From Bacteroidales bacterium (GTDB lineage Bacteria > Bacteroidota > Bacteroidia > Bacteroidales > WCHB1-69), in contig JAFYNM010000029.1 of the NCBI GenBank assembly GCA_017549765.1, positions 93,720 through 157,719 on the forward strand: a stretch of 64,000 nucleotides of DNA. Direction: 5' to 3'. Of this stretch, positions 1-49,849 are shown piece after piece. A program made the translations under genes and the position numbers. Numbering within the stretch: position 1 is the first letter of the stretch; the number at the start of each line of letters is the position of its first letter. The notes under the pieces were generated by a model. The model searched no databases, was not told where the DNA came from, and saw nothing but the letters and a program-made list of their open reading frames with translations.

Positions 1-1064
1 GTAGATGTGGTGCTTTGCACACTCTCCCAGGTGGCCCCTTGGTTGGAGCTTAGGAAGACCTCGTAATGGTTCAATCCACCCGTCATGTTGGCATAGGCGT
101 TCCAAGACAGGGAGGCGCTGTGATTGCAGGCATCGATGCCGTTCTGGTACAGTTGCATGTCGCACTGCTGGGCTGTCTCGGCGGTCATGGGAGAGCTGTT
201 GGAGCAGGAGTCCAAGACAGCGATACGGTAACACCGGTCACCGCCGAAGGGATCAATCCAGGTGGTGCTGTTGAAGACGGTGTCCAAAGGTTCCCAGCCA
301 TTGTTGAGATAATAGACGATATAGCCGTACATGTAGGGTTCTTCGGAGTGGAATCCCAACATCACCTGATTGTTTCCGGTGTATGAAACACTGTCCAGCA
401 CGGGGGTGCTGGGCGCATAGCGGTCCACCACGAAAACCGAAGCGATTGGAGTTCTGAAAACGCAACTGTGGGTAGGGCTGTAGTTGTTGGTGATACCTAC
501 CTGGTAGTACATATAGTTGTAGCAGACATCGACGGTGTCCACATAGATACGTTCAGCCGTGGCGGGAATGGTGGCGAAGGGGGTGTTGGTAAAGCCCTCC
601 TCGAAATCACGAATTTTGTACAGGAAGTAGGTGTTGCCCCATGTGGAGCCGGTCATCTGGGTGGAGGGCGCCTCCCATTCCAGCGTGACCAAAGAGCTGT
701 CTGCGTTGGGCGTCACCGTCAAGCTGATGGTCTGAACGACATTGGAGTTGTAGGTGGCGCCACTCGCGGTCACCGCCTCGATATAGCAAGTGTAAGAGCT
801 GGCAGGCGTGATGTCGTTCAGCACGGTGCTGCCGTAGTTGCACATGGTGTAGCCGTTGCCGGGCGTGGCCGATCCCACCATCGTGCCGTTTACGTAGAAG
901 TTGTAGTAGGCAAAAGAAGCACAGTCGTTGGAGTTGTCCCACGACATCTTGACACGCGTGTTGTTATTCTGCAATTCCACACACTGCAATACAGGGGGGT
1001 CTAAGGCGTAACAGCCTAACAGACAGAGTAAAAACAAACAGGTAGAGAATATGCGTTTTGTCAT
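1..1064 (-). CDS. Secreted lipoprotein with Fn3/Ig-like beta-rich region; N-terminal 354 codons only (gene continues past the left window edge)
   Basis: ATG at 1064-1062. Hand translation: MTKRIFSTCLFLLCLLGCYALDPPVLQCVELQNNNTRVKMSWDNSNDCASFAYYNFYVNG... Lipobox LLGC. I walked this frame codon by codon down to nt 3 and found no stop. It is absent from the supplied track because it is edge-truncated. Plus-strand ORFs 5..274, 66..386 and 468..1004 are its antisense shadows. Confidence 0.75.
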   Translation of the reverse strand, partial: MTKRIFSTCLFLLCLLGCYALDPPVLQCVELQNNNTRVKMSWDNSNDCASFAYYNFYVNGTMVGSATPGNGYTMCNYGSTVLNDITPASSYTCYIEAVTASGATYNSNVVQTISLTVTPNADSSLVTLEWEAPSTQMTGSTWGNTYFLYKIRDFEEGFTNTPFATIPATAERIYVDTVDVCYNYMYYQVGITNNYSPTHSCVFRTPIASVFVVDRYAPSTPVLDSVSYTGNNQVMLGFHSEEPYMYGYIVYYLNNGWEPLDTVFNSTTWIDPFGGDRCYRIAVLDSCSNSSPMTAETAQQCDMQLYQNGIDACNHSASLSWNAYANMTGGLNHYEVFLSSNQGATWESVQSTTS

Positions 1065-1083: not shown

Positions 1084-2364
1084 TTATAATTTATTACCAA
1101 CGATGATTTGAGTGAAATTATTGTGGTCAAAATAAATTTTTGCCATTTTTTTCAGATCTTCAGGTTGTGTGTCTTGGATGATTCGCAGCATCTCTTGAAG
1201 GATAGAGAGGTCTGTATGTTGATTTCGCCAGAACGCATATTTGGACATGTAGGAGACGGAGTTGCTGAGTTCCTGAATCAACGAGCCGGTCATGTAGGTT
1301 TTGACAGTCTGCAGCTCCTCTTCCGGGACGGGTTCCTGCTGGAGGCGTTCCAACTCTTCAAAACAGGCGTCAATGGCCTCTTGGGTATGGGTGGCGTCCA
1401 CATCGCTCTGGATGCTGAAGATGGATTGATGACCGAAATAAGCCGTGCTGTTGCTGATGCCGTAGGTGTAGCCGTGGCGCTCACGCACCCGTTGCATCAG
1501 ACGGGAACCGAAGTAGCCACCCGTAATGGTGGAAAGCACTTTGAAAGGTGAACGTGCCTCGTCGGCGTAGGCGAGATGAGGCATGGCCAGACAGATGGAA
1601 GACTGTATGCTCCCAGGGACTTCTACATTGAGCAGAGGATTCTGGTCGAATGGCATCTGAAAGAGGACGGGCTCTGGGGTGCGAACCCCATGACATATTG
1701 TCTGGAAGGTCTCACGGATGATTTTTGTAGTCTCTGAATCCAGATGCCCGGTGACATACAGAGAAAGGTTCTCAGCACAGAAATTCTCCTGGTGATAGCG
1801 CTCCAGATCCGAAATAGTGATGGCATGGTAGCTCTCTTCGGTGGCTGGCTGTCCTGCAGCACACTGATCACCCAACATGGCCTGCAACATGAGTCTGGAA
1901 CACAAGAAGTTGTTCTTTTTTAGATTGTTGCGAAGGCTTTGTATGCGCTGCTGGCGTATGAGACTCAGATAATCTTCCCGGTATTTGGGTGCTGACAACA
2001 TCTCGAAGACAATGGGCAGCATGGGCGGAATGTTACGTTTCGGGATGACGATTTTCAGGCATACGGAGTCTAGATAAACGTCCACATCGAAGGTGGATCC
2101 ATAGAAGTCCAGCAGATCTGCCATTTCAGCGGCATGATACTTGGGATGGCTTCCTTTGAGCAGGCCGTATGTGAAGAGAGAAAGATGCTTTTTCGGTTCA
2201 TGGATGGCTCCGGAACGGATGTCGAGCTGGAGGTGGATAAGGTCCAGATCGTCGTTGGGGAAGACAAACATGGGGATGCCGTTCTTCAAGGTTTCAAGGA
2301 TGGGCTCTTTGAGTGGAACGGAGAGGAGGGGGTGTATTTCAGGGGCGATACTTCTGTCGATCAT
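1084..2364 (-). CDS. M16 (insulinase/pitrilysin) family protein, probably a non-catalytic subunit
   Basis: 426-aa ORF with ATG start. The M16 C-terminal-type motif is present (GGYFGSRLMQRVRERHGYTYGISN). Where active M16 enzymes carry HxxEH (HFLEHMxFKG), this protein reads SLFTYGLLKGS, so the zinc motif is absent. Confidence 0.7.
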   Translation of the reverse strand: MIDRSIAPEIHPLLSVPLKEPILETLKNGIPMFVFPNDDLDLIHLQLDIRSGAIHEPKKHLSLFTYGLLKGSHPKYHAAEMADLLDFYGSTFDVDVYLDSVCLKIVIPKRNIPPMLPIVFEMLSAPKYREDYLSLIRQQRIQSLRNNLKKNNFLCSRLMLQAMLGDQCAAGQPATEESYHAITISDLERYHQENFCAENLSLYVTGHLDSETTKIIRETFQTICHGVRTPEPVLFQMPFDQNPLLNVEVPGSIQSSICLAMPHLAYADEARSPFKVLSTITGGYFGSRLMQRVRERHGYTYGISNSTAYFGHQSIFSIQSDVDATHTQEAIDACFEELERLQQEPVPEEELQTVKTYMTGSLIQELSNSVSYMSKYAFWRNQHTDLSILQEMLRIIQDTQPEDLKKMAKIYFDHNNFTQIIVGNKL

Positions 2365-2370
2365 GAGGAG

Positions 2371-3225
2371 CTATTTAAGAAGGACCACTTGTCCTTTTAG
2401 AGTCTTGGCATTGCCGTCAGGGTCGGTGTAGCGGATGACGTAGATATACGCGCCCGGGGGCAACAACGTGCCGTGGTTGTAGCCATCCCATCCCTGTTCG
2501 ATGTTGTGGGACGTGAAGACCCGGGAACCGTTGCGGGCGAAGATGCTGATCTCATAGTCTTGCACCGTAAAGCTGGCTTTCGGCATGAAGATGTCGTTGT
2601 TGCCATTGCCATCGGGAGTGAAGGAGTTGGGGACGAAGAGTTTGTATTCCTCCACGGAAGGCTCTTCGCTTTGTGCCGGCTCGCTTTTCGGCTCGGGAGT
2701 TGTTGCGATAGCATCAGCAGCGCTGGTGGTGGGGTGGATGGCGGGTGGGGTGGTGCTCGGGGTGACAGCGGTCACTGCCGGCGTCACGATGGCAGGTGCC
2801 ACAGTGGCTGTGGGCGCACTCTTCGTCCCTACCACTGGAGCAGCGGCCGTGGTGGCTACTAGGTCTCCGTCACTGGCTTGGATGATGGGCTCGGATTCTA
2901 GAGGACGTGTGTCTGTGACGACAGGAGCAGCTGGCAAAGAGACGGTACTCTCTGGTGCCGTGGTGGGTGTCTCGGATTGGACGACAGACTCCGTGACAAC
3001 GGCTGCAGGTGCGGCATCGGCAGGGGCCTCTTGGGGACGGCTCAACAAAATGCCACCAACAATCAGCGCTGCTGCCACAAGGCCTGCACCGCTATATGCG
3101 GCAATACGCCCGATACGACGCCCTCTGTTGAAACGGACAAGTCGCGGGTCTGATGCTATCTGCGACCATTCAGACTCGTCCACCGGGACAGTGTATTCCG
3201 ATAATGCTGTCTTTATATCTTTCAT
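2371..3225 (-). CDS. Single-pass membrane protein in anti-sigma position, ending in a T9SS type-B (CHU_C / gliding-motility C-terminal) domain
   Basis: The ATG (3225-3223) overlaps the sigma stop TGA (3224-3222) as ATGA. About 40 aa at the N-terminus have no signal-peptide character. One hydrophobic span follows (IAAYSGAGLVAAALIVGGILL), then about 150 aa of P/A/T/V-rich linker. The last ~85 aa (KLFVPNSFTPDGNGNNDIFMP...GWDGYNHGTLLPPGAYIYVIRYTDPDGNAKTLKGQVVLLK) match the CHU_C/TIGR04131 signature by eye. Confidence 0.7.
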   Translation of the reverse strand: MKDIKTALSEYTVPVDESEWSQIASDPRLVRFNRGRRIGRIAAYSGAGLVAAALIVGGILLSRPQEAPADAAPAAVVTESVVQSETPTTAPESTVSLPAAPVVTDTRPLESEPIIQASDGDLVATTAAAPVVGTKSAPTATVAPAIVTPAVTAVTPSTTPPAIHPTTSAADAIATTPEPKSEPAQSEEPSVEEYKLFVPNSFTPDGNGNNDIFMPKASFTVQDYEISIFARNGSRVFTSHNIEQGWDGYNHGTLLPPGAYIYVIRYTDPDGNAKTLKGQVVLLK

Positions 3226-3776
3226 AATATATCTATTTCTTTTCCTAAATAGGCTGTTATTCTCTTTCTTAAAGATTGTTTCGAACGCGATATCAAAGTG
3301 CGGACGTTGGTGGGCGTCATCCCCATGATCTCTACAATCTCCTGCTCCGTATATCCTTCCACTTCGTAGAGGTTGAAGGCCAGCTTCTGGTTGACAGGCA
3401 AGGTGTTGATGATCTGGACCAACTGATCCATCGTCAGCGTGTCATCATGATGCTCAGGCGCGGCAAATTCCACCAGACTGTCATCCGAAGATTCAGTACG
3501 GTGAATTTGCTTCAGGCGAAGGAAATCAATGCACTTGTTGACGGATATCTTGTATATCCAGGAACGGAGTGAGTTGTGGGATTGGTAGGAGTTTACTTTG
3601 GTCAGAACCGAAATGACAATGTCATGGAACAGATCTTTGGACTCCTCCGTCTCATAACCCACATAACGATAGCAAACTGCCTTGATCATAGGACCATAAG
3701 CCTTGTACAATTGTTCCTGGCAGGCCTGATCACCTCGTTTGCATCCGTTTATGATTTCCTTCTCTCCGTTCGTCAT
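3222..3776 (-). CDS. ECF-type RNA polymerase sigma-70 factor
   Basis: 184 aa with ATG at 3776. Region-2-like segment: DLFHDIVISVLTKVNSY...LRSWIYKISVNKCIDFLR. Region-4 HTH: YTEQEIVEIMGMTPTNVRTLISRSKQSLRK. Confidence 0.9.
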   Translation of the reverse strand: MTNGEKEIINGCKRGDQACQEQLYKAYGPMIKAVCYRYVGYETEESKDLFHDIVISVLTKVNSYQSHNSLRSWIYKISVNKCIDFLRLKQIHRTESSDDSLVEFAAPEHHDDTLTMDQLVQIINTLPVNQKLAFNLYEVEGYTEQEIVEIMGMTPTNVRTLISRSKQSLRKRITAYLGKEIDIL

Positions 3777-3798
3777 CGCTTATGATAACACTATTGTA

Positions 3799-3824
3799 AG
3801 ACGAATTACGCCTCTTTTTGTTGC
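3799..3824 (-). promoter_or_regulatory. Candidate ECF-type (autoregulatory) promoter TGCAAC-N16-CGTCT
   Basis: The minus strand reads TGCAAC aaaaagaggcgtaatt CGTCT. The -35-like AAC is at 3822-3820 and the -10-like CGTCT at 3803-3799, with a 16-nt spacer. It ends 22 nt upstream of the sigma ATG (3776). It resembles the AAC...CGT(C/A) class of ECF promoters. There is no TAnnTTTG box here. Confidence 0.4.
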
Positions 3825-3868
3825 AGTGATTGATAATTTTTTTTTCTTTGCACTTTGATTGTGTCTGT

Positions 3869-4450: not shown

Positions 4451-4908
4451 ATGTCGAGACCAGGAGCACTGTTTTTCACAGAGTCGGTTCCAGCCGTGTC
4501 TTTGGGAAGATTGTTGGGATGCAGGATGCTCTCCAAAGGTCTGTAAATGAGAGAGTCAGGTATGTTGGAGTTCGTTTTTAGCTGGGTGATGTTATTGGTG
4601 ACCTCTTCCAACATTTTTTGTAACAACTCTTTGTCGCTGATATAATACTCCATGGATTGGATGAACTGATCTTTGGTGATCTGATGGCGGTCGAAGATGT
4701 CCTTGTAAAGCTTCAAGGTCAGGTCTTCGATGGATACAGAATCCATGGAGGCATAGATGTAGGCTTCTGCAAGATAGGAATCTGTCAGGATCTCGACCAT
4801 TTTTTTGCGGTTGATCAGATTGTCGGGTTTGTCGGCTACGACCTGCTTTTTATGACAGGCGGTGCAGAGTGTCAACAGAGCTATGAGGATGGTGGCAAGA
4901 CGTTTCAT
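4447..4908 (-). CDS. DUF4296-like lipoprotein
   Basis: 153 aa. Lipoprotein signal MKRLATILIALLTLCTAC. KPDNLINRKKMVEILTDSYLAEAY fits the DUF4296 pattern as I remember it. Its 3' end overlaps mpg by 4 nt (convergent). Confidence 0.65.
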   Translation of the reverse strand: MKRLATILIALLTLCTACHKKQVVADKPDNLINRKKMVEILTDSYLAEAYIYASMDSVSIEDLTLKLYKDIFDRHQITKDQFIQSMEYYISDKELLQKMLEEVTNNITQLKTNSNIPDSLIYRPLESILHPNNLPKDTAGTDSVKNSAPGLDI

Positions 4909-16914: not shown

Positions 16915-17526
16915 TTATATTGCATAGCGCATTTTACCCACCATGTCGGAGAGCATAGCCTTGGCCCGGAGCAATTGGATCTTGACATTCGAGAGGGAGA
17001 TATTCAAGTCTTTGGCTATCTCTTCATAGGAAAGTTCATCGTAATAACGCAGTTCGACAACCTTCCGGTATTTTTCGGGCAGGCGCTGGACGGCGGTGCG
17101 CAACATGGAGGAGCGTTGTTTGTCGATGACCTCGTCTTCAGGAGTCTTGGTATGGTTGGAGGAGGATCTGTCGATCATCTGTTCCGACGACAAACTGAAG
17201 AGGTCGTCGTCCACACATTGGGGGGAGTTGTTCTTGTGCCGGATATAGTCGATGCTGTTGTTGACCGCAATGCGATACAGCCAGGTGGAGAAGGCATATT
17301 GCGGGGAGTAGGCGTGCAGGTTGCGGAATGCCTTGCCGAAAGTCTCCTGCGTGAGATCTTCCGCATCGTCACTGTTTTTCACAATTCGCATCATCAAATA
17401 ATAGATGCTGTCTTGGTACAGGCTGACCAATTCCGCATAAGCCTTCTGATCGTTATAGTCTATCGCCTTACGCAGCAGCAGATAGTCCCTCTTGGCTTTT
17501 TCCGTGGTGTAATTGATGTTTCCCAT
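16915..17526 (-). CDS. ECF-type RNA polymerase sigma-70 factor
   Basis: 203 aa. Region 2: DAEDLTQETFGKAFRNLHAY...FSTWLYRIAVNNSIDYIR. Region 4: LSYEEIAKDLNISLSNVKIQLLRAK. Its ATG overlaps the stop of the upstream GT2 gene (TAATG). Confidence 0.9.
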   Translation of the reverse strand: MGNINYTTEKAKRDYLLLRKAIDYNDQKAYAELVSLYQDSIYYLMMRIVKNSDDAEDLTQETFGKAFRNLHAYSPQYAFSTWLYRIAVNNSIDYIRHKNNSPQCVDDDLFSLSSEQMIDRSSSNHTKTPEDEVIDKQRSSMLRTAVQRLPEKYRKVVELRYYDELSYEEIAKDLNISLSNVKIQLLRAKAMLSDMVGKMRYAI

Positions 17527-24810: not shown

Positions 24811-26232
24811 TCAATCGAGGACGCAGCGGACCGAGAAGCCGCTTTTGCGATCAGAGACGATGTCAATGCCGGGAGCTGAATTGCCATTAAACACCTTTAC
24901 AGATTGGGCACTGGGGCCATTGGCTTGGCACCCCAAAGTGGTGCTCCATAACAATGCCTCACCTCCAGGGGCTATATATGACGCAGTGGTATAATAATTG
25001 TAAAGACCCGCCGGCAGTATCGAAAAACCAGTGGCGTCATTGGTGGAAGGATTGTTGCCTGGGGCGCAAGACCAACTTGCGAAATTCCAATAATTTGTGG
25101 AAGCCCATGCTTTGGCAGTATTGTAAGAGTTGTTGTTGCAGAAGTATTGGCTCTGGCTTCGCACATAGTTGTTCAGTTGTTGCCATTCCGCTATACTGGG
25201 CACATGCCAGCCCTCTGGACAAATACCTTGCACGCCCGAAGGATTGCTGTCGCTCCCGTTGGCGCCGTGCATCACGGCAGGCCAGTTGTAGAAATAGCCA
25301 AAGAGCGTCACATTGGCACTGTCATTGTTGGGATAATAACGGTAAGCGTCTGTATTGCTGCCGTCAACTCCCAAAGGGATCATCGTTCCATCAGTGTATC
25401 TGACAGAGCGGAGATTCTCTTTCGTCCAGCATTGGTTGCCGATCTGGACCGTGTTGTAAACATTGCCGTCGTAGTCATACACATACGGGAGTCGCGGACA
25501 AGGAAAGCCGTCATTAATCCCTTGCTGGAAAGCAAAATAAAGCTTGATAAACTCTGTGCCACTCTGTTCCTGCACCAGACTCAAAGATATCTCGTCAGAT
25601 CCGTTGATGGTGGCATAACCGATATATTCCATTTGGTCCCCTTGATGGAACGGTTGGTAGGAATTGCCTTTGGGCGACAAGCCGTCAAGATCTTCTTTGG
25701 AAGAGAGGCCATGGTATTTGATCCCATTCTTTCCCCCATTTCCCTGGTTTACAATCTTGACAGATGCAGATTTGCCGTTCTGCTTTGCTGTAAGAAAATA
25801 GATGCCTGCCGCAGCAAACGTCACGTCCAACTGGTGGGATCCGGGAAGGACGGATGTCATTCGAGAAGACTCTACGACACGCCCCGTTATATCCGTGATG
25901 TCAATCATCACATCGCCGGCTTCCTGCACAAGTAGGGTTGTCAGGGAGTTTCCTTGGCACGGGTTGGGGCTGCAAGACCAGTGGAGAGGCTCGGCAGCTT
26001 GCCAGGTTTCCACGCCATTAGGTCCGGGGGTGGCATGCAGTTGCAAGACGGTATCGGGCCAGTAGAGGGTCTCCTGCCAGCCTTGGGAGAGGTTCTTCAC
26101 CTGGATTTGTTCAAGACGCACATAGCGGTTGCTAGTATCCCGCCCCGAAAAATACAAATACACCGTCTGGGCGTAAAACACCGTAGCGGTCATAACTATC
26201 ACAAGGGAGAGTAAAAGCTTCTTCATCATCAA
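24811..26232 (-). CDS. Secreted FISUMP-domain protein (Fibrobacter succinogenes major paralogous domain) with an internal T9SS-CTD-like module
   Basis: 473 aa with signal peptide MMMKKLLLSLVIVMTATVFYAQ. The C-terminal ~225 aa carry the FISUMP signature: YDYDGNVYNTVQIGNQCWTKENL ... YFYNW ... GICPEGWHVPSIAEWQQL ... GFSILPAG ... SGFSVRCVLD. Residues ~83-161 resemble a Por secretion tail. Confidence 0.8.
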   Translation of the reverse strand: MMMKKLLLSLVIVMTATVFYAQTVYLYFSGRDTSNRYVRLEQIQVKNLSQGWQETLYWPDTVLQLHATPGPNGVETWQAAEPLHWSCSPNPCQGNSLTTLLVQEAGDVMIDITDITGRVVESSRMTSVLPGSHQLDVTFAAAGIYFLTAKQNGKSASVKIVNQGNGGKNGIKYHGLSSKEDLDGLSPKGNSYQPFHQGDQMEYIGYATINGSDEISLSLVQEQSGTEFIKLYFAFQQGINDGFPCPRLPYVYDYDGNVYNTVQIGNQCWTKENLRSVRYTDGTMIPLGVDGSNTDAYRYYPNNDSANVTLFGYFYNWPAVMHGANGSDSNPSGVQGICPEGWHVPSIAEWQQLNNYVRSQSQYFCNNNSYNTAKAWASTNYWNFASWSCAPGNNPSTNDATGFSILPAGLYNYYTTASYIAPGGEALLWSTTLGCQANGPSAQSVKVFNGNSAPGIDIVSDRKSGFSVRCVLD

Positions 26233-29021: not shown

Positions 29022-29678
29022 TTAAGGATTTATGAGACGGCCGTCTTGCAGCTGTATCTTGCAGTCTGACAGGGCGGCGAGTTCTTCATTGTGGGTGACG
29101 ATGACGAAAGTCTGGTGGAACTGGTCGCGCAGTTCAAAGAAGAGCTGGTGCAGTTTGCGGGCGTTATCGGTGTCGAGGTTGCCGGAGGGCTCGTCGGCGA
29201 GGATGATCTCGGGTTTGTTGACGAGGGCGCGGGCCACGGCGACACGCTGCTGTTCGCCGCCGGAGAGTTCCGCCGGCTTGTGGGTCATCCTGTCTTGGAG
29301 GTGCAGGAAGGCGAGCAGCTCCTCGGCCCGTGCCAATGCCTCCTTCTTGGAGAGTCCCGCAATCATGGCCGGCAGGGCCACATTCTCCGCGGCCGTGAAC
29401 TCCGGCAGCAGATGGTGGAACTGGAAGACGAAGCCGATATGGCGGTTGCGGAAGTCGGAGAGCTCCTGGTCGCGCAGCTTGTTGATGACAGTGTCCTGGA
29501 TGACGACCGTCCCGCTGTCGGCACGGTCCAGCGTGCCCATGATGTGCAACAAGGTGGACTTGCCCGCCCCGGAAGGGCCGACAATAGAGACCACCTTGCT
29601 GTCCTCAATGGAAAGAGTTATGTCCTTCAGCACATGGAGAGGGCCATAACTCTTGTTGACATGTTGTACTTGGATCAT
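29022..29678 (-). CDS. lolD: ABC transporter ATP-binding protein, LolD/MacB-type
   Basis: 218 aa. Walker [12 protein letters not shown], signature [15 protein letters not shown], Walker [12 protein letters not shown]. Its ATG (29678-29676) overlaps the etfA stop by 1 nt (TAATG). Confidence 0.85.
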
Positions 29679-30682
29679 TATTTCTGGATTTCCTTAGCCA
29701 GACGTGCAGTCAACATCGGCACTATCTTGTGGAGATCGCCCACGATGCCCAGGTCGGCGACGCCGAAGATGGGGGCGAACTTATCCTTGTTGATGGCGAT
29801 GATGTAGTCAGACTCTTCCATGCCGGCGAGGTGCTGGATGGCACCGCTGATACCGCAGGCCATGTAGAGGTTGGGACGCACCGTCTTGCCGGTCTGGCCG
29901 ACCTGCAGGTTGTGGTCCATGACGCCGGCATCCACCATGGCACGGGAGGAAGCCACCTGGCCGCCCAACACGTCGGCGAGCTCGCGCAGCTTGTCAAAGC
30001 CCTGCGTGTTGCCTACGCCACGGCCGCCGGAGACGAGCACCTTGGCCTCGGTGATATCGACACAGTCCTTGCACTCCTTGACGGTCTTCACCAAGCGTAC
30101 TTTGAAACGGCTGCTGTCGAAGGTCGGCTTGAAGTCGGTGACACTGCCCGTACGGGAAGCGTCGGGAGCCATCTTCTGCATCACGCCCGGGCGTACCGTG
30201 CTCATCTGCGGACGATGCTCGGTGTTCAAGATCGTGGCCATCAGGTTGCCGCCGAAGGCGGGACGCGTGCTGGCCAGCTGCTTGTCCTCCGTAATCTCCA
30301 ACTTGGTGCAGTCGGCGGTGAGACCCGTGTTCAGACGGGCTGCCAAGCGCGGCGCCAAGTCACGACCGATGGTGGAGGCACCAATCAGCATCATGTTGGG
30401 CAGGTAATGGGACACCACCTGGAAGAGTGCCTGCGTGTATTGCTCCGTGAGATAGTCCTTCAGCTCGGGCTCATCCACACAGATAACCTCATCGGCACCA
30501 TATTGAATCAGCATGGAGGCCTTGTCTTTGACTTGATAGCCCAACAAGACGGCCACCACCTTCTCGTTCAGATCCTGGGAGAGCTTATGGGCTTCTCCTA
30601 ACAGCTCCAAAGCGACGGATTGGATGTTGCCTTCGCGCTGTTCTGCGAAGACGAAGATATTTTTATAGTCAGATTTTTCCAT
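29678..30682 (-). CDS. etfA: Electron transfer flavoprotein, alpha subunit
   Basis: The track ORF (396 aa) is extended across etfB. ATG 30682 gives [31 protein letters not shown]. The C-terminal FAD-binding part includes [12 protein letters not shown]. Confidence 0.92.
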
Positions 30683-30690
30683 AGCAATCG

Positions 30691-31473
30691 TTAAATAATG
30701 TGTTTCTCTTTCAGTTTGTTGACGATGATTTCGACAGCCTCTTCGGGATCTACTTCGAAGACCTCGCCTGCACCCTTCTGAGGCTTGGTGAAGGACTTCT
30801 TGACGCGTGTCGGGGAGCCGGAGAGTCCCAGACGTTTCTCGTCCACATCGAGTTTGTCGGCACCCCACACTTCCACCTCTTTGTCGTATGCTTCCATGAT
30901 GCCCTTGACGGTCATGTAGCGCGGTTTGATGGCGGAAGAGAGGACGGTGAGCACGCAGGGGGTCTCCACCTCGAGTACCTGATAGCCGTCTTCCAACTCT
31001 TTGGTCAGAGTGAGGAGTTTGTTGCCATCATATTCGAGGTTGGTCACGTAGGTCACCTGCGGCAGGTCGAGGTGCTGAGCCAGAGACACGGGGGTCTGGG
31101 CGGTGTCGCCGTCTATGGCCTGGCGTCCGGAGAGGATCAGGTCGTAGTCGAGCATGCGCATGGCGCCGGAGAGCGCGTAGGAAGTGGCCAAGGTATCGGC
31201 ACCGGCGAATTTGCGGTCAGAGAGCAGGATGGCGCGGTCGGCGCCCATAGCGAAGGCCTCGCGGCAGATGGCGTCGGCTTGCGGAGGACCCATCGTGATG
31301 ACGGTCACATGTGCGCCGTACTGGTCTTTCAGACGCAGGGCCAGCTCCAGAGCGGAGGCATCGTCGGGATTCAGAATGCTGGGCACTCCGTCGCGGATGA
31401 GCGTACCCGTCTCCGGATTGATTTTAATAACATTGGTATTCGGAACCTGTTTTATCGTTACAATAATATTCAT
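30691..31473 (-). CDS. etfB: Electron transfer flavoprotein, beta subunit
   Basis: 260 aa. MNIIVTIKQVPNT ... INPDDASALELALRL ... typical EtfB. Confidence 0.92.
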   Translation of the reverse strand: MNIIVTIKQVPNTNVIKINPETGTLIRDGVPSILNPDDASALELALRLKDQYGAHVTVITMGPPQADAICREAFAMGADRAILLSDRKFAGADTLATSYALSGAMRMLDYDLILSGRQAIDGDTAQTPVSLAQHLDLPQVTYVTNLEYDGNKLLTLTKELEDGYQVLEVETPCVLTVLSSAIKPRYMTVKGIMEAYDKEVEVWGADKLDVDEKRLGLSGSPTRVKKSFTKPQKGAGEVFEVDPEEAVEIIVNKLKEKHII

Positions 31474-31487
31474 AAGTCTCTAAGTTT

Positions 31488-32627
31488 TTATTTGAACAAT
31501 TTACCGGCGATCACCATTCTCTGGACCTCGGAGGTGCCTTCGTAGATCTCGGTGATCTTGGCGTCGCGCATCATACGTTCGATTTCATACTCGCGGGTGT
31601 AGCCGTAGCCACCGTGGAACTGCACGCACTTGGTGGTCGTCTCCATCGCGGTCTCGGCGCAATAGAGCTTGGCCATGGCAGCATCCACCGTGTAGGGCTG
31701 CTTGTTGTCTTTCTTCCAGGCAGCCTGGCGTACGAGCAGACGGGCGGCCTGCACTTTGGTCTCCAGGTTGGCCATCTGGAACTGGGTGTTCTGGAAGGCG
31801 CTGATGGAGCGGCCGAACTGCTTACGTTCCTTGGTGTATTTGACGGTCACGTCAAGGGCGCCCTGGGCGATGCCCAATGCCTGAGCGGCGATACCGATAC
31901 GGCCGCCGTCGAGGGTCATCATGGCGATCTTGAATCCCTTGCCGAGGTCTCCCAACAGGTTCTCCTTCGGGATGCGGCAGTTTTCAAAGATCAGCTCGCA
32001 GGTGGCGGAGCCGCGGATACCCATTTTCATCTCCTTCTTGCCGATGGAGAAGCCGGGGGTGTCCTTCTCCACGATGAAGGCGGAGATGCCACGGGTGCCT
32101 TGTGATTTGTCGGTCATAGCCATCACGACATAGACGTGGGCGTAGCCGGCGTTGGTGATGAATATCTTGGAGCCGTTGAGGACCCACTCGTCACCGTCCA
32201 GCACGGCGGTCGTCTGCTGCATGGCAGCGTCGGTGCCGGCGTTGGGTTCGGTAAGACCGAAGGCGCCGATCCACTCGCCAGAGGCAAGCTTGGGCAGATA
32301 TTTCATCTTCTGGTCTTCGGTGCCAAATTCCAGAATGGGGTTCATACAGAGGGAGGTGTGGGCGCTGACCACCACGGCAGTGGTGGCACATACCTTGGCC
32401 AGCTCCTCTACAGCCATAATATACATCTGGTTGGTGCCGCCCTGACCACCATATTGGGTCGGGATCGGGATGCCCATGATACCAATCTTGGCCATCTTCT
32501 CCACCGTCTCGGCAGGGAAACGCTCCTGCTCATCTATTTCAGCAGCCAAAGGCTTCACTTCCTCTTCCGCAAACTTACGGATCATCTGCAAGAAGAGTTC
32601 TTCTTTCTTGTTTAAACTAAAATCCAT
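31488..32627 (-). CDS. bcd: Short-chain acyl-CoA (butyryl-CoA) dehydrogenase
   Basis: 379 aa. Acyl-CoA dehydrogenase signatures GAFGLTEPNAGTD and QFHGGYGYTREYEIERMMRDAKITEIYEGTSEVQ. Adjacent to etfBA. Confidence 0.9.
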   Translation of the reverse strand: MDFSLNKKEELFLQMIRKFAEEEVKPLAAEIDEQERFPAETVEKMAKIGIMGIPIPTQYGGQGGTNQMYIMAVEELAKVCATTAVVVSAHTSLCMNPILEFGTEDQKMKYLPKLASGEWIGAFGLTEPNAGTDAAMQQTTAVLDGDEWVLNGSKIFITNAGYAHVYVVMAMTDKSQGTRGISAFIVEKDTPGFSIGKKEMKMGIRGSATCELIFENCRIPKENLLGDLGKGFKIAMMTLDGGRIGIAAQALGIAQGALDVTVKYTKERKQFGRSISAFQNTQFQMANLETKVQAARLLVRQAAWKKDNKQPYTVDAAMAKLYCAETAMETTTKCVQFHGGYGYTREYEIERMMRDAKITEIYEGTSEVQRMVIAGKLFK

Positions 32628-32643
32628 TGTGTAATTGTATTAA

Positions 32644-32673
32644 TTCTAACTAAAAACTTCTAACTACTAACTA
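32644..32673. repeat. Short repeat cluster TTCTAACT / CTAACTA
   Basis: Lies in the 51-nt spacer between the CoA-transferase B gene and bcd. TTCTAACT occurs at 32644 and 32658; CTAACTA at 32646, 32660 and 32667 (the last two in tandem). Confidence 0.7.
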
Positions 32674-32678
32674 CCCTA

Positions 32679-33338
32679 TTAGTCGATTTCCATCGGCTTG
32701 AGGTCGGGAGAGACGATGAAGTCGGCCTCGGTGGCAGCCTTCACGTCCTCGACGGTGAACTCGGGATAGAGCTCCGTGAGGGTCAGGCCTTCGGGTTTGA
32801 ACTCCATGACACACATCTCGGTGATGATCATGTTGACCTTTCCTTTGGCAGTCAGGGGCAGGTTGCATTTATGCAGGATCTTGGGTGCGCCCTTCTGGGT
32901 GTGGATCATGGCGATGATCACGCGGGCGTTGGTCAGCAGGTCCATAGCGCCACCCATACCGGCGACCAGCTTGCCGGGAACCATCCAGTTGGCCAAGTCG
33001 GCGTTTTCATCCACCTGCATGGCGCCCAAGACGGTAGCGTCCACATGGCCGCCTCTGATCAATGCGAAAGAGTCGGCAGAGCTGAAGGATGCCGCACCAG
33101 GTTGTGCGGTGATATAGCCGCCGCCGGAGTTGGTCAAGAACGGATCCTCCTTGCCCTCTTCGGGGGTGGGACCGAATCCCAACATGCCGTTCTCCGTTTG
33201 CAAGATCACATGCACGTCTTTCGGTAAATAATTGACTGCCATGGTGGGAAGACCAATACCAAGGTTCACCACATCGCCGTCGTGCAACTCTTTAGCCACA
33301 CGTTTGGCGATAATTTGCTGCATTTGTTGTTTATCCAT
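32679..33338 (-). CDS. 3-oxoacid / acetate CoA-transferase, subunit B
   Basis: 219 aa. VVNLGIGLPT and the catalytic-Glu motif QTENGMLGFGP are typical of AtoA/ScoB/CtfB beta subunits. Confidence 0.88.
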   Translation of the reverse strand: MDKQQMQQIIAKRVAKELHDGDVVNLGIGLPTMAVNYLPKDVHVILQTENGMLGFGPTPEEGKEDPFLTNSGGGYITAQPGAASFSSADSFALIRGGHVDATVLGAMQVDENADLANWMVPGKLVAGMGGAMDLLTNARVIIAMIHTQKGAPKILHKCNLPLTAKGKVNMIITEMCVMEFKPEGLTLTELYPEFTVEDVKAATEADFIVSPDLKPMEID

Positions 33339-33381
33339 ATCTTTAAGTTTTAATAAAAATTATCCTTATAAAATAAGCGGG

Positions 33382-33410
33382 GCAAAGATACAAAAAATGT
33401 TTATCTTTGC
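33382..33410. promoter_or_regulatory. Back-to-back divergent -7 boxes forming a perfect 9-bp inverted repeat
   Basis: GCAAAGATA (33382-33390), 11 nt, TATCTTTGC (33402-33410). Read outward, each arm is the consensus box TATCTTTG. The minus box is 44 nt from ATG 33338 and the plus box 97 nt from ATG 33507. Confidence 0.5.
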
Positions 33411-33506
33411 ACCCGACTTTTTTCACGAATCGAAAAAGGACGCGATTCTCACTGGAAAATGTCGATGTTTTTTCGCTAAGTTATTATAAGTCCGAATAAA
33501 AACTTT

Positions 33507-34301
33507 ATGGAACAGACCCACACACAGGAATATGAATTTTTAAAGGTCAACAGAGAGGACCGGATTGCCGTGGTCGCCATCTCCGCACCGAAGTCATTAA
33601 ATGCGCTGAACTCTGTCATCATTGGCGAGCTGACGCACTATATCTCCAATATTGAGGAAGACATCCGGGTGCTCATTATCACGGGTGACGGGGACAAGTC
33701 CTTCGTGGCGGGTGCCGACATCTCCGAGATGGCAACGCTGGACCGCATTGGCGGGTGTGCTTTCGGGCAGGCTGGCGCCGAGCTTTTCCGCATGATCGAG
33801 ACGTTGCCGATACCCGTTATCGCGGCCGTCAACGGCTTCGCTTTGGGTGGCGGCTGCGAACTGGCCATGGCCTGCGACATCCGTCTGGCCTCCAACAGAG
33901 CCAAGTTCGGCCAGCCTGAGGTGGGCCTGGGCATTATCCCCGGCTTCTCGGGCACGGTTCGTCTTGCCCGTACCGTGGGCATGGGTCTCGCCAAGGAGAT
34001 GATCTATACGGGCAAGGTCATCCGCGCCGACGAAGCGCTGCGCATAGGTCTCGTCAATGCCATCTACGAGCCGGAATCCCTGATGGATGCCGCCATGGAG
34101 ATGGCTAAGAAGATCGCCGCCAACGCCCCCATCGCCGTGCGCTACTCCAAGACCTGCATCAACCAGGAATGGGACATGCCTGCCGAAACCGCCATCGAGT
34201 TCGAGACCGAATACTTCGGCAGGTGCTTCGACACCGAAGACCAGAAAGAGGGCATGCAGGCGTTTCTGAACAAGACCCCTGTGGAGTTTAAAAATCGATA
34301 A
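33507..34301 (+). CDS. crt: Enoyl-CoA hydratase (crotonase)
   Basis: 264 aa. FVAGADISEM and GGGCELAMACDIR crotonase-fold motifs. Confidence 0.9.
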   Translation: MEQTHTQEYEFLKVNREDRIAVVAISAPKSLNALNSVIIGELTHYISNIEEDIRVLIITGDGDKSFVAGADISEMATLDRIGGCAFGQAGAELFRMIETLPIPVIAAVNGFALGGGCELAMACDIRLASNRAKFGQPEVGLGIIPGFSGTVRLARTVGMGLAKEMIYTGKVIRADEALRIGLVNAIYEPESLMDAAMEMAKKIAANAPIAVRYSKTCINQEWDMPAETAIEFETEYFGRCFDTEDQKEGMQAFLNKTPVEFKNR

Positions 34302-34310
34302 AACAACAGA

Positions 34311-34338
34311 TCACTGATCACTGTTCACTGATCACTAA
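34311..34338. repeat. Heptamer tandem repeat (TCACTGA/TCACTGT/TCACTAA) x4
   Basis: TCACTGA TCACTGT TCACTGA TCACTAA, starting 10 nt after the crt stop in the crt-hbd spacer. Confidence 0.8.
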
Positions 34339-34364
34339 CTTAATCACATAAAAATAATTACAGT

Positions 34365-35201
34365 ATGAAAATTTGTGTTATTGGAACAGGTACTATGGCC
34401 AAGGGCATCGTGAAGGCTTTCGCTGCCAAGATGCCGGTCGTTATGAAAAGTAGAACCCAGGAGAGCCTCGACAAAGCCATGGGCTCCTTTGCCAAGGGAT
34501 ATGGCAAACTCGTGGAGAAGGGCAAGCTGACCCAAGAGGCCGTTGACGCCATCCTCGCCAACATCACCACCACGACCGATTACGCCACGTTTGCTGATGC
34601 AGACCTGGTGATTGAGGCCGCCGTGGAGGATATGCAGCTCAAGAAGGATGTCTTCACCGAGCTGGACAAGATCTGCAAGCCGGAGACCATCTTCGCCACC
34701 AACTCCTCTTCATTGTCCATCACGGAGATTGCTGCCTGCACCAGCCGTCCGAGCCAGTTCATCGGCATGCACTTCTTCAACCCTGCCGACAGAATGGCAT
34801 TGGTGGAAGTCATCAAAGGACAGAAGACCTCCGATGAGGTGTGCAACCTGATCGTGGATCTGGCCACCTCCATTGGCAAGACCCCGGTATTGGTGAATGA
34901 GGCTCCCGGTTTCGTGGTGAACCGCATCCTCATCCCGATGATCAACGAGGCTGTGGGCATCCTGGCCGACGGCATCGCTTCCGCCGAGGACATCGACAAG
35001 TGCATGATGTTGGGTGCCAACCATCCGATGGGCCCGCTCGCCTTGGCCGACCTGATCGGCAACGATGTGAACCTCGCCATCATGGAGGTTCTGTACAACG
35101 AGTTCGGCGATCCGAAATACCGTCCGCATCCGCTGCTCCGCAAGATGGTGCGCGCCGGTTTGCTCGGCCGCAAGACCGGTGAAGGATTCTACAAATACTA
35201 A
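34365..35201 (+). CDS. hbd: 3-hydroxybutyryl-CoA dehydrogenase
   Basis: 278 aa. NAD-binding motif [15 protein letters not shown]. The FFNPA and GFVVNRIL motifs of 3-hydroxyacyl-CoA dehydrogenases are present. Confidence 0.92.
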
Positions 35202-37369: not shown

Positions 37370-39406
37370 ATGCGCAACTGGCTGAGCATCTGGCTTCTGC
37401 TGATTCTCCTCTTCTCTGGCACCAACCTGTTCGCCCAAGAAGAGGAGGATCCTTGTGTGCAGACCATGGACAAGGCCAGTGAGAAACTCTTCAAGAAAGC
37501 CCGCGATCTTCAGAAGAGCGGCAAGAAAGCGGAGGCATACGAGCTATACGATGAGATTCTGGAGGATCATCCCGAATACTTAGCCGTCAATTACTACTAT
37601 GCTATGGGATTGTATGGTCCGTTGGAGCAAAACGACTATCATCCTATCAAGAAGGACAAGTCGGATTTGACCAAGGCGTTGGCGGCGTTCAACAGAATGT
37701 ACGACGTATGTCCTTATTACAAGGCGCATTGCAACCTCTATGCAGCGCGGCTGGCGTACGCCAACGAGATATTCCCGGAAGCCATCAAGTTCGCGTCTGT
37801 CATCGTGGATAACCCCGACCTTTTCAACAAGCCCACCGACACGGCAAAGCTCACGGAGGCGCAGCTGCTCATCCGCAAGGCGCGTTTCTACGACAATATC
37901 CTGAACCATCCGGTCCCCTTTGATCCCAAGCCGGTGGCAGGCATCTCCACCAAATATGATGAATATCTCGGAACCTTGTCCCCAGACGGCTCCCTGTTCT
38001 ACTTCACCCGCCGCAAAGAGGTGCCGGTGCAGACGGCCTTCGGCAACAGCGATGGCGAGACCGAACGTAGGGAGTTCTTCTCCCAGAGCGCATTGAAGAA
38101 CGGCCATTTCCAGACCGGTGCACCCCTCCCCGACCCTTTCAACCTCTCCAAGAGCGAGGGCAGTCCCACCATCAACATCACCAACGATCTGCTCATCTTC
38201 ACCCGTCTGATGCCCACCACCAACAGTCGAGGGGTCACCTATCAGAACTATGACCTCTACTACTCGGAGCGCATTGGAGACGAGTGGACAGAGCCCAAGA
38301 GTCTGGGATCCAACATCAACACACCCAATTCGTGGGAGTCACAGGCCTCGTTGAGCTCAGACGGCAAAATTCTCTTTTTCGCTTCCGACCGTCCCGGCGG
38401 CTTCGGCGGCTCCGACATCTGGTATTCCCAGCGCAACAGCGACGGCTCCTGGCGCAAACCCATCAACTTGGGACCTAAGATCAACACCGAAGGGGACGAA
38501 CGATCCCCCTTCCTGCATACCGACAGCAAGACGCTCTACTTCTCCTCTTCCGGCTTTGACGGTATCGGAGGACAAGACATCTTCTTCTCGAAACTCGATG
38601 CCAATGGCAAATGGAGTGATCCTATCAACATCGGCTACCCCATCAATACAGAGAAAGACGAGGTGGACTTCTTCGTCAGTCTGGACGGTGCCACCGGCTA
38701 CTTCTCTTCCAACAGCTATGGCGACCACGACTGGAACATCTACGAGTTCGACCTGTACGAGGATGCGCGTCCCCACAAGATGCTCATCGTCAAGGGCTCT
38801 GTCACGGCTGATGACGACGAGTTGGAGAATGCCGTGGTAGAGATTCGCGACACGGCTGCCAAGGTCATCGCCACGGGCGTGGTCAGTGCCAACAACAAGC
38901 AATACGCTGTGGCCACCGAAGTACCCAAAGAGGATGCCGCACCGCTCATCGTGACCGTCAAGAAGGAGGGCCACTCATACGATGCGCAGGTCATCACGTC
39001 CGAGCAGATCGCCACCCAGCCCATCATCACCAAAGATGCGGAGATCAAGTCCATCGAGACCGGCAAAGTCTGCGATCTGAAGGACATCTACTACCAGACC
39101 AACTCTTACACGCTGACGCAGGCCTCGCAGGTCATCATCAATCTCTTTGTGGAGTTCTTGCGCGACAACCCGACCGTCAAGGTGGAGATCCAGGGTCATA
39201 CCGATGACGTTGGCAATGACAAAGACAACCAGATCTTGTCTGAGCGGCGTGCCAAGGCGGTCTATGACCTGGTCGTCAGCAAGGGAGTATCGGCTGATCG
39301 TTTACGATACAAAGGTTATGGCGAGTCGCAGCCCATCGCCGACAACAGCACGGCTGCCGGCAGAGCCAAGAATAGAAGAACCGTTTTCCTGATTTATGAG
39401 CAATAA
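37370..39406 (+). CDS. OmpA-family protein with TPR, TolB-like (PD40) beta-propeller repeats and a C-terminal OmpA peptidoglycan-binding domain
   Basis: 678 aa with a signal peptide. PD40-like repeats: SPDGSLFYFTR, SSDGKILFFASDRPGGFGGSDIWYS, HTDSKTLYFSS. OmpA_C: VEIQGHTDDVGNDKDNQILSERRAKAV...GYGESQP...NRRTVF. It starts 1 nt after the tpiA stop. Confidence 0.85.
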   Translation: MRNWLSIWLLLILLFSGTNLFAQEEEDPCVQTMDKASEKLFKKARDLQKSGKKAEAYELYDEILEDHPEYLAVNYYYAMGLYGPLEQNDYHPIKKDKSDLTKALAAFNRMYDVCPYYKAHCNLYAARLAYANEIFPEAIKFASVIVDNPDLFNKPTDTAKLTEAQLLIRKARFYDNILNHPVPFDPKPVAGISTKYDEYLGTLSPDGSLFYFTRRKEVPVQTAFGNSDGETERREFFSQSALKNGHFQTGAPLPDPFNLSKSEGSPTINITNDLLIFTRLMPTTNSRGVTYQNYDLYYSERIGDEWTEPKSLGSNINTPNSWESQASLSSDGKILFFASDRPGGFGGSDIWYSQRNSDGSWRKPINLGPKINTEGDERSPFLHTDSKTLYFSSSGFDGIGGQDIFFSKLDANGKWSDPINIGYPINTEKDEVDFFVSLDGATGYFSSNSYGDHDWNIYEFDLYEDARPHKMLIVKGSVTADDDELENAVVEIRDTAAKVIATGVVSANNKQYAVATEVPKEDAAPLIVTVKKEGHSYDAQVITSEQIATQPIITKDAEIKSIETGKVCDLKDIYYQTNSYTLTQASQVIINLFVEFLRDNPTVKVEIQGHTDDVGNDKDNQILSERRAKAVYDLVVSKGVSADRLRYKGYGESQPIADNSTAAGRAKNRRTVFLIYEQ

Positions 39407-49600: not shown

Positions 49601-49849
49601 GTCTGGAGTCAAAGCACCTACGTAATTAACGTAAGATGCAGATGTGATACATGCATCGCCTGAATGTACGTTGAAAGTACCAACGGTAGATGAAGAAACC
49701 CAGTTGTACCCGTCGCCGTCAGCATCGATAGCTGTCCAGCCGGCCGGAACCGTAGCTCCCTCAAAACTCTCATTCAGGAAGGTCACCTGTGCCTTGGCAC
49801 AGAAACTCATCACGAACAAAGCGATGAATAGAGTAAAAATCTTTTTCAT
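46679..49849 (-). CDS. Large modular T9SS cargo: four choice-of-anchor-J / cleaved-adhesin-like domains, three Ig-like domains and a type-A C-terminal sorting domain
   Basis: 1056 aa with signal peptide MKKIFTLFIALFVMSFCAKAQ. Repeated domain starts: FLNESFEG...WTAIDADGDGYNW...LTPDNWLITP (res ~22-180) and LPFTEGFES...NIDNDGDGNVW...LTPDNWLITP (res ~810-970), plus two DDYLISPE variants. Ig-like units: APFSVSADGVTYG, APFSVSLDNTTYS, APFEVSTDGNTFG. C-terminal tail: SIYPNPATEVLNV...LANGIYMVRVNTENGVINQKFTVAR. Confidence 0.85.
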   Translation of the reverse strand: MKKIFTLFIALFVMSFCAKAQVTFLNESFEGATVPAGWTAIDADGDGYNWVSSSTVGTFNVHSGDACITSASYVNYVGALTPDNWLITPQLAVSAGDSISFWYRGQDATYSAEVFGVYVSTTTMDTTAFTSVYQGVSTNEYQRVAISLNAYAGQNIYVAIRHYNVTDMFWLNIDDVQFGSLPSTPTITATSDIDFGQTAINNNADQTVTVTAYSLTGNITVTTAAPFSVSADGVTYGTTATLTATTGAGNITNATLYVRYTPTAVGTDNGTMTIASAGATTDTVALTGSAISCTVTSYPYNFGFDNDGLASCWDVVDANNDASTFTIATASGYAYYTYNGTNAADDYLISPEFVLTGNEMASFDYWVGLSSYPESFMVYALGTDTVVLVNTVTANNTSSAPMTQYVPLSNLTGTYRIAIKCTSAADQYRLYIDNFSVFASTAASITLTPTSIDFGVIPTGTTTTSTVDLTILNASNDITITAVAPFSVSLDNTTYSTSVTIPTPTSSVLNQTFYVAFAPTTATTVNDVVVVSTLGASDTVTVTGTGVECDVINQFPFVETFSDTSETRACWVIENANNDDRTIVYGTVSGEWVAAYVYSSTNAANDYLISPEIQVASNMYGHIDYYCNGYTEKFSVWAIPANGTIANAVNIVPTVTVTNTTPAVQNFDLSAYANQTIRVAIKVESDADQYYLFLDNFTVAELPAASLAVDPTSMTFSSVAGTVTSAQTANIAAYSLTNDITVSVDAPFEVSTDGNTFGASATIAQASIVEAPIYVRYAPTAVGTQNGTVTLTSGSLTATIALTGNAMDCSQAQSLPFTEGFESDINGCWLNIDNDGDGNVWRLEEATDTKPAHTGNYSYTSESYINYVGALTPDNWLITPALSIPSNGASLEWWVAAQDPNYPADYYEVKVSTTTTDLSAFTTLYTETISSGDWLDRHVNLNYPDQTIYIAFVHTNCTDMFRMKIDDISVTAGVGVQNVENNVSIYPNPATEVLNVTANSNIQSVEIMNIMGQTVQTLNANDNYTQINISNLANGIYMVRVNTENGVINQKFTVAR

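Follow-up and report, generated by a model that had tools for sequence, protein, structure and literature searches.

Analysis of a 64,000-nucleotide stretch of a Bacteroidales bacterium genome (contig JAFYNM010000029.1, positions 93,720 to 157,719; hereafter the window) led to a gene for an extracytoplasmic function (ECF) sigma factor that is followed by the gene of a membrane protein of 284 amino acids (aa), whose C-terminus is a type-B sorting domain for type IX secretion (the type IX secretion system being abbreviated T9SS). It is quite probable that this partner protein is the cognate anti-sigma factor of the ECF sigma, since it is the sole membrane protein of a conserved operon, is translationally coupled to the sigma and bears an N-terminus that is common to the partners of related sigmas. 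What it would sense is a more tentative matter. Our preferred reading, to which we give somewhat less than an even chance, is that the two proteins form a sigma/membrane anti-sigma pair in which the sensor is the type-B signal itself, held on a tether of about 144 residues and coupling the release of the sigma to engagement of the T9SS or of its shuttle.

The sigma factor and its membrane partner

The sigma gene is located at 3222..3776 of the minus strand and encodes a 184 aa protein with the Pfam domains Sigma70_r2 (residues 23-88, E-value = 2.9e-13) and Sigma70_r4_2 (residues 117-169, E-value = 2.4e-13), scoring 94 bits against TIGR02937 (cutoff 42.9). It contains the sigma2 and sigma4 domains only, with neither r3 nor r1, and is therefore assigned to the ECF (group IV) sigma factors. 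Its best specific model is NF058625 (the PG0214/GFO_1088 family), although neither this one (82.6 vs. 130 bits) nor the Bacteroides-type TIGR02985 (79.4 vs. 126.4 bits) reaches its curated subfamily cutoff; the closest solved structures in the PDB are SigW, SigE and RpoE. Being a minimal two-domain ECF sigma without a built-in regulatory extension, it needs a regulator acting in trans. Alignment of the sigmas also showed two cysteines, C12 of a 'GC' motif and C35 of a 'CxRY' motif, to be invariant in all ten orthologues, the Flavobacteriales one included.

The TGA of the sigma and the ATG of the partner share the ATGA at 3222-3225 of the minus strand. A preliminary description of the locus had pointed to this overlap and was correct in its other particulars too, except for the strand, as both genes lie on the minus strand, and for the length of the linker. 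The partner gene (2371..3225, minus strand) starts within the overlap. The first 40 residues of its product (3106..3225, minus strand) form a conserved module, predicted to be cytoplasmic and to be the putative sigma-binding part, with the consensus MKxLKxxFxxYxxPVDExxWExIAxDxxVVRYNRxRRxRR, and W20 is invariant among the 32 full-length representatives that were aligned. By hydropathy the protein has only one hydrophobic stretch, spanning roughly residues 41-61 (3043..3105, minus strand), with a Kyte-Doolittle maximum of 1.99 over residues 43-61. Since eight lysines or arginines precede this stretch, which itself holds none, the positive-inside rule predicts an N-in orientation. The AlphaFold2 (AF2) model of the partner, built from a 36-sequence alignment, has helices at residues 3-9, 17-24 and 27-61, the last one running continuously through the transmembrane (TM) segment, so that hydropathy and AF2 together support the roughly 40 cytoplasmic residues and one TM helix first described.

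The hydrophobic stretch appears to be an uncleaved anchor and a cleavable signal peptide appears to be absent, because a conserved, helical N-region of 40 aa precedes a hydrophobic span of about 21 residues, after which no conserved AxA site was found in the family alignment. A long signal peptide, considered as another identity for this N-terminus, was judged unlikely from the same features. The partner falls into none of the recognised anti-sigma classes (zf-HC2 or anti-sigma domain (ASD) class I, RskA, FecR) and residues 1-66 contain no HxxxCxxC motif. In functional terms it resembles an anti-sigma factor in that its gene adjoins that of the cognate ECF sigma and is, from the ATGA overlap, presumably co-transcribed with it, and in its predicted N-in single-pass topology.

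The TM helix is followed by a disordered linker (residues 62-194; 2644..3042, minus strand) consisting to 64% of proline, alanine, threonine and valine. Such a linker had been described previously with about 150 aa; its composition stands, while its length is about 134 aa. In the AF2 model residues 62-190 are devoid of secondary structure, and the predicted local distance difference test (pLDDT) values of the linker are about 49-62.

The extreme C-terminus (2374..2643, minus strand) is the type-B sorting domain. It matches PF13585 (CHU_C) over residues 197-278 (E-value = 1.6e-15, 57.4 bits, cutoff 27; profile positions 2-82 of 86) and TIGR04131 over residues 198-282 (50.1 bits, cutoff 35; profile positions 3-83 of 85). 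[quoted passage not shown] Searches of Pfam and NCBIfam with the partner gave no domain besides CHU_C. The CTD keeps the canonical PNGDGxND motif and is modelled by AF2 as a beta-sandwich over residues 191-284 (pLDDT > 90). Foldseek matched it with immunoglobulin (Ig)-like and PKD domains, including the CTDs of PorZ and of NucA, the latter in its complex with the SprA translocon. In characterised substrates, type-B CTDs are recognised by the T9SS, remain uncleaved and are retained, docked on PorP/SprF-like outer-membrane proteins (PMC9143113, PMC12618676).

Conservation of the pair and exchange of C-termini

When either the full protein or an alignment served as query, word-indexed searches of proteins yielded 9-11 close relatives, the candidates being saturated by low-complexity and CHU_C words; nine of these relatives come from uncultured Bacteroidales and carry the annotation gliding motility-associated C-terminal domain protein. 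The same kind of search with the partner N-terminus alone gave zero matches. A genome scan found full-length copies of the partner in five species of rumen Bacteroidales represented by metagenome-assembled genomes (MAGs), its other matches being mostly generic CHU_C proteins; among about 74 such generic loci a sigma was nearby only in two, L061 and L062. The family was found with an exhaustive search using a hidden Markov model of the N-terminal 66 residues only, a profile that holds no CHU_C information. It returned about 32 clusters (at 50% identity) of Bacteroidales proteins of 283-315 aa, and all 32 full-length representatives share the N-terminal motif, the TM helix, an unalignable linker and a CHU_C end. 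The absence of any cargo domain, already remarked for the window protein, is kept in every one of them. An ECF sigma lies directly upstream in 12/12 family loci with upstream context, so that the sigma and its partner, which the preliminary description had taken for a pair, constitute a conserved unit whose synteny holds in all family loci where upstream sequence is present. This conservation rules out that the partner is a chance open reading frame (ORF) or an artefact.

Conservation is distributed unevenly along the protein. Mean pairwise identity among the 32 representatives is 48.8% in the CTD, which is the most conserved region, 38.5% in residues 1-40, which come second, 25% in the TM helix and 15% in the linker, near the level expected from shared composition alone. 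The length of the linker is 143.5 +/- 5.4 aa (range 134-155). As the ends are conserved while the linker keeps its length at 15% identity, selection acts on both ends of the protein and on the length of the spacer, not on its sequence. A disordered chain of 144 residues would have, judging from its length, a contour length of about 45-50 nm, enough to cross the periplasm and to reach or traverse the translocon with the N-terminus still in the inner membrane; the constraint on this length suggests that the linker works as a molecular ruler between the two membranes.

The comparison was extended to 80 loci of ECF sigmas with 24-43% identity by scanning metagenomes with the alignment of the sigmas as seed. 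Among their complete and closely spaced downstream partners, 16 of 46 (14 distinct sequences) have a CHU_C end, and all ten CHU_C partners checked against Pfam exceed the gathering cutoff. These CHU_C-partner loci vary in GC content from 31 to 57%, with a mutual identity of mostly 21-35%. Four of the partners (L089, L091, L111 and L166) lack a cargo domain, as the window protein does, while a class of about 430 aa has one PKD domain ahead of the CTD. In the two Flavobacteriales MAGs (L061/L062) the sigma is followed by a 395 aa partner and then by a 1034 aa CHU_C cargo; this partner has three copies of the N-terminal motif, a TM helix, a linker of about 165 aa and a TIGR04131 score of 36.8 bits. 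The order sigma, CHU_C partner and CHU_C cargo recurs in L166, and similar cargo-like genes lie downstream in L091 and L092. The arrangement is therefore not the one-off that it had first seemed to be but is widespread among Bacteroidota; the constraint on linker length had likewise been missed.

A W-x-x-[ILVMF] motif within residues 13-50, followed by a TM helix, was found in 43 of 57 non-duplicate partners of the related sigmas, and translational coupling of the ATGA type recurs. Partners without CHU_C end instead in an outer-membrane beta-barrel (L098, L099, L115, L116), a PKD domain (L158) or a GH88-like segment (L134). Because the motif recurs in related partners whatever their C-terminal domain, the N-terminus is marked as a sigma-linked module that accompanies the sigma, the C-terminal domain being the exchangeable part. 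The C-termini that could be assigned to a family are, by prediction, mostly domains ending in or beyond the outer membrane. The barrel partners belong to OMP_b-brl_2 or OMP_b-brl and are located at L098:5542-7071, L099:5555-7255, L115:1003-2412 and L116:5537-6856; being anchored in the inner membrane, they suggest a sister class of envelope-spanning regulators.

The operon, its candidate promoter and other genes of the window

The pair itself was described correctly at the outset, but the continuation of the operon into an M16-like gene and a type-B cargo gene was missed. The order is sigma, CHU_C partner, M16-like protein and a cargo with fn3 domains, a signal peptide and its own type-B CTD, with intergenic gaps mostly of -4 to +19 nucleotides; a look for terminators in these gaps gave none in the window. 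The four-gene operon is kept among orthologues with only 28-43% identity and the divergent MPG glycosylase gene upstream of the sigma belongs to the conserved cluster, while the genes beyond it vary by locus (Fib_succ_major, phosphofructokinase, or ribosomal proteins and SecY).

The third gene (1084..2364, minus strand) begins after a gap of 6 nucleotides and encodes a 426 aa protein with a Peptidase_M16_C domain (E-value = 3.4e-29) and a weak YfmF/YfmH-like match. Its synteny is kept in L001, L082, L084, L086 and L087. As both the HxxEH zinc motif and a signal peptide are missing from the protein, in the six orthologues examined, it is probably cytoplasmic and non-catalytic. The fourth gene is cut by the edge of the window, which holds its 5' 1064 nucleotides (1..1064, minus strand) as an open frame beginning MTKRIFSTCLFLLCLLGCYAL. 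It corresponds to a secreted protein of about 680 aa with a signal peptide and fn3-like repeats, presumed to be the cargo or output of the operon. Its full-length orthologues are 679-701 aa long, with fn3 domains and a C-terminal CHU_C, and signal peptides are present in all of them; the one of the window lineage (L001) scores 31 bits against TIGR04131, just under the cutoff of 35. The first motif of the cargo CTD is degenerate, reading PLQTINKVF in L001:8190-10229, PNRSINNVF in L086:3521-5626 and GMGNSNRVF in L087:8373-10457.

The candidate promoter of the operon, of the ECF type, is TGCAAC (-35) N16 CGTCT (-10) at 3799..3825 of the minus strand, and it ends 22 nucleotides before the sigma ATG, exactly as the preliminary description had reported. 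In six loci (the window and five related ones) the two blocks ACTGCAACAAAA and TCGTCTTA are identical throughout but separated by a variable spacer, which leaves a footprint of the element. A similar TGCAAC-N15/16-TCGT occurs in the distant loci L082 and L084, and in L087 the motif is degenerate. The strict motif has one match in the window where 0.53 would be expected anywhere in 64 kb, which is not significant alone, so the case for promoter function rests on position and footprint and not on rarity; a chance match is unlikely given where the element lies and that it stays invariant in six loci whose spacers vary. With AAC at -35 and CGT at -10 the element fits ECF autoregulation. A regulon search with the motif returned, within the 64-kb window, the putative autoregulatory site only. 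Additionally, a second match of the form GCAAC-N15-18-TCGTC lies at about 4665-4705 of the plus strand, at the same position in the four related loci L003-L006 and neither in the window nor in L007, near the end of a PNGase-like gene and upstream of a CCA-adding-enzyme gene; it may reflect conservation of coding sequence or a second promoter.

The host organism likely has a T9SS, since the window encodes a canonical T9SS substrate with a type-A CTD as well as a PorE-like gene. The former (46679-49849, minus strand, 1056 aa) is a Cleaved_Adhesin/choice-of-anchor J protein with a C-terminal TIGR04183 match of 50 bits (cutoff 23). The latter (37370-39406, plus strand) encodes a 678 aa PD40 (WD40-like) and OmpA protein that scores 226 against the PorE-like model (cutoff 600) and 246 against the CHU_0125 OmpA-like one (cutoff 620). 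A 473 aa ORF at 24811-26232 of the minus strand carries a type-A CTD-like domain at residues 89-161 (TIGR04183 33.5 bits; PF18962 32 bits) upstream of Fib_succ_major/FISUMP, an unusual order, and its TTG start may be over-extended.

Further sigma genes of the window are a second ECF sigma at 16915-17526 of the minus strand (SigW/SigM-like, 149 bits), a sigma-54 gene at 52134-53624 and a primary sigma gene at 55085-55951. The second ECF sigma gene and the final part of a GT2 glycosyltransferase gene overlap, an AMP-binding enzyme comes next, and no obvious anti-sigma is present there. Finally, a butyrate-type fermentation block at 29600-35200 comprises electron transfer flavoprotein alpha/beta, acyl-CoA dehydrogenase, CoA transferase, enoyl-CoA hydratase and 3-hydroxyacyl-CoA dehydrogenase.

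Proposed signalling by the pair and its place among known systems

According to the preferred reading, the 40-residue cytoplasmic N-terminus would hold the sigma at the inner membrane, where the predicted TM helix would anchor the partner N-in, and the linker, judging from its length, would let the tethered CTD reach the T9SS at the outer membrane. Capture of the CTD by a free translocon or by a PorP/SprF-type shuttle would strain or expose the protein, leading, most likely through regulated proteolysis, to removal of the anti-sigma and release of the sigma, which would then transcribe its own operon from the TGCAAC-N16-CGTC promoter. The anti-sigma would thus act as a mimic of the operon's cargo, in a checkpoint or titration loop that matches cargo synthesis to the capacity left for secretion or anchoring, and the loop could be closed down once plentiful cargo titrates the shuttle. 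What we infer in this scheme is that the sigma is bound, that the CTD is recognised, that proteolysis takes place and which way the signal runs, whereas the order of the genes, the domain layout, conservation throughout the family, the footprint of the promoter and the T9SS hallmarks of the genome are observed. Because the output of the operon is itself a type-B cargo, the substrate-mimic model is the most coherent one.

Several points weigh against it. In canonical T9SS substrates the Sec signal peptide is cleavable, and a substrate that stays tethered might jam the translocon. Residues 1-66 of the partner gave no known anti-sigma domain in Pfam or NCBIfam (E < 0.1), and a profile search of the PDB with the N-terminus found no relative at E < 0.9. 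The region upstream of the CTD of about 90 aa is disordered, and efficient secretion of type-B proteins reportedly needs 150-235 residues (PMC12618676). No PorP/SprF-like gene was found in the operon, in the related loci or among the scanned ORFs of the window, so the partner would be an 'orphan' type-B protein, an adjacent shuttle gene being common but not universal (PMC12618676). Core T9SS genes are likewise missing from the window. Several CHU_C-partner lineages have no downstream cargo gene, the promoter motif was not found in L086, and no signal of covariation between the partner CTD and the cargo CTD was detected within the operon. The role of the M16-like protein in an operon of sigma, anti-sigma and cargo is also left unexplained.

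The same architecture and conservation could serve a stress sensor of opposite polarity, whose CTD would normally be engaged or protected; under blockage or saturation of the T9SS, periplasmic proteases would attack the unengaged CTD and linker, much as happens to RseA in the sigma-E system, and with the anti-sigma destroyed the sigma would turn on a response. Being long and disordered, the linker would be a natural target of proteases, and unsecreted CTD proteins accumulate in the periplasm of T9SS mutants. We nevertheless hold this to be improbable: the regulon identified consists of the operon itself and its T9SS cargo only (one promoter match in 64 kb), boosting cargo while secretion is blocked would be counter-productive, and sensing through protease accessibility needs no constrained linker length. 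That constraint, kept in the linker without conservation of sequence, would agree with a static trans-envelope tether or generic Ig-like sensor, whose CHU_C domain docks, for example, on a PorP-like outer-membrane protein, on peptidoglycan or on the co-encoded cargo, whose linker gauges or bridges the distance from inner to outer membrane, and which senses envelope spacing or integrity instead of T9SS flux. Sister proteins with an outer-membrane beta-barrel end suggest contact with both membranes, type-B CTDs do remain attached and bind PorP-like barrels, and the CTD folds as a generic sandwich of the Ig-like or PKD-like kind. Nonetheless, a surface-exposed PorP site could be reached by the CTD only via T9SS transport, the CTD retains the full TIGR04131 signature including PNGDGxND, and the frequent co-occurrence of type-B cargo points to a secretion logic, so that we rate the tether as equally improbable. 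A little less probable still is that the partner is no anti-sigma at all but a co-regulated small type-B surface protein whose long N-region is a signal peptide or anchor, the sigma being controlled otherwise, for instance by the M16-like protein; the want of a recognised anti-sigma domain and the canonical CTD would suit it, but the N-region is the second most conserved part and predicted helical, unlike the n-region of a signal peptide, the hydrophobic span of about 21 residues lacks a conserved AxA site, the N-terminal motif and TM follow related sigmas regardless of the C-terminal domain, the ATGA coupling recurs and the sigma is a minimal one without regulatory extension.

Regarding known systems, the substrate-mimic model has a conceptual parallel in FlgM, a soluble cytoplasmic anti-sigma that is exported by the flagellar type III secretion system, whose secretion competence releases sigma-28. 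In both cases the anti-sigma would itself be a substrate of the machine whose output genes the sigma controls, although the partner spans the inner membrane once and carries its tether in the periplasm and a T9SS signal at the C-terminus, has no sequence or fold relationship to FlgM, and its secretion is putative. With RseA/sigma-E, RsiW/sigma-W and RsiV/sigma-V it shares a gene directly downstream of an ECF sigma, here putatively autoregulated, translational coupling and a single N-in TM helix. It differs from them in having only about 40 cytoplasmic residues with no ASD, zf-HC2 or RskA signature, and an outside part made of a disordered, ruler-like linker and a secretion signal instead of a ligand-binding or protease-gating domain. 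Type-B substrates such as SprB, Fjoh_3952 and PG1035 have the same complete C-terminal TIGR04131/CHU_C domain, and a type-B cargo is encoded in the same operon; unlike them, the partner appears to have no cleavable signal peptide, has neither a passenger domain nor an adjacent PorP/SprF-like gene and, with its inner-membrane anchor, forms a pair with a sigma.

The nearest experimental precedent is PorA of Porphyromonas gingivalis, where a T9SS sorting domain carries regulatory activity and feeds T9SS status into an ECF sigma pathway (PMC7712824, PMC12152298). Specifically, the CTD of PorA, besides being a secretion signal, is a periplasmic ligand of PorY that activates PorX-SigP, and it signals even when PorA is artificially tethered to the inner membrane (PMC12152298, PMC7712824). 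The two systems are alike in that a T9SS CTD would feed an ECF sigma pathway. PorA, however, combines a type-A CTD with a FimH-like N-terminal domain and a signal peptide that is cleavable, and SigP is activated via PorY/PorX, whereas in the window a type-B CTD is covalently part of the sigma's own TM-anchored membrane partner and the locus has no histidine kinase, PorX or two-component system. With neither the signal peptide and type-A CTD nor PorY, the partner is an analogue of PorA only. In Flavobacterium psychrophilum a promoter class of the ECF type drives T9SS genes and one autoregulated sigma/anti-sigma pair, with the layout of the partner undescribed there; ECF control of the T9SS therefore exists in flavobacteria. 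Searches of the literature on anti-sigma factors, ECF sigmas, the T9SS, type-B proteins and TIGR04131 brought up no description of a sigma partner with a T9SS CTD, which agrees with the initial impression that no such system had been reported, and the main text of the ECF classification paper makes no mention of CHU_C or T9SS-linked anti-sigmas. Thus the kind, an ECF sigma/anti-sigma pair, is known, while a T9SS sorting signal as its input domain is apparently undescribed.

How the expression of T9SS cargo is matched to secretion capacity is poorly understood, with PorA-PorXY-SigP as the only worked example, and a compact and widespread module that puts a T9SS sorting signal directly on a presumed anti-sigma makes the question directly testable. 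Proteins of this kind currently bear no label other than 'gliding motility-associated C-terminal domain-containing protein', and it may be a mistake to include them among the secreted T9SS substrates. Moreover, the beta-barrel sister architecture is a hint that regulators spanning the envelope form a broader class in Bacteroidota, a phylum with many ECF sigmas whose input is unknown. A general principle, which we consider rather unlikely as it stands, would be that Bacteroidota use substrate-mimic anti-sigmas, with a T9SS CTD or a beta-barrel of the type handled by the beta-barrel assembly machinery (BAM) as distal domain on a linker of fixed length, and that capture by the respective machine frees the sigma. 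If this were true, each sigma would signal how much capacity is free on one particular route of secretion or insertion and adjust synthesis of the matching cargo, giving the T9SS an equivalent of the FlgM checkpoint and trans-envelope signalling a general principle.

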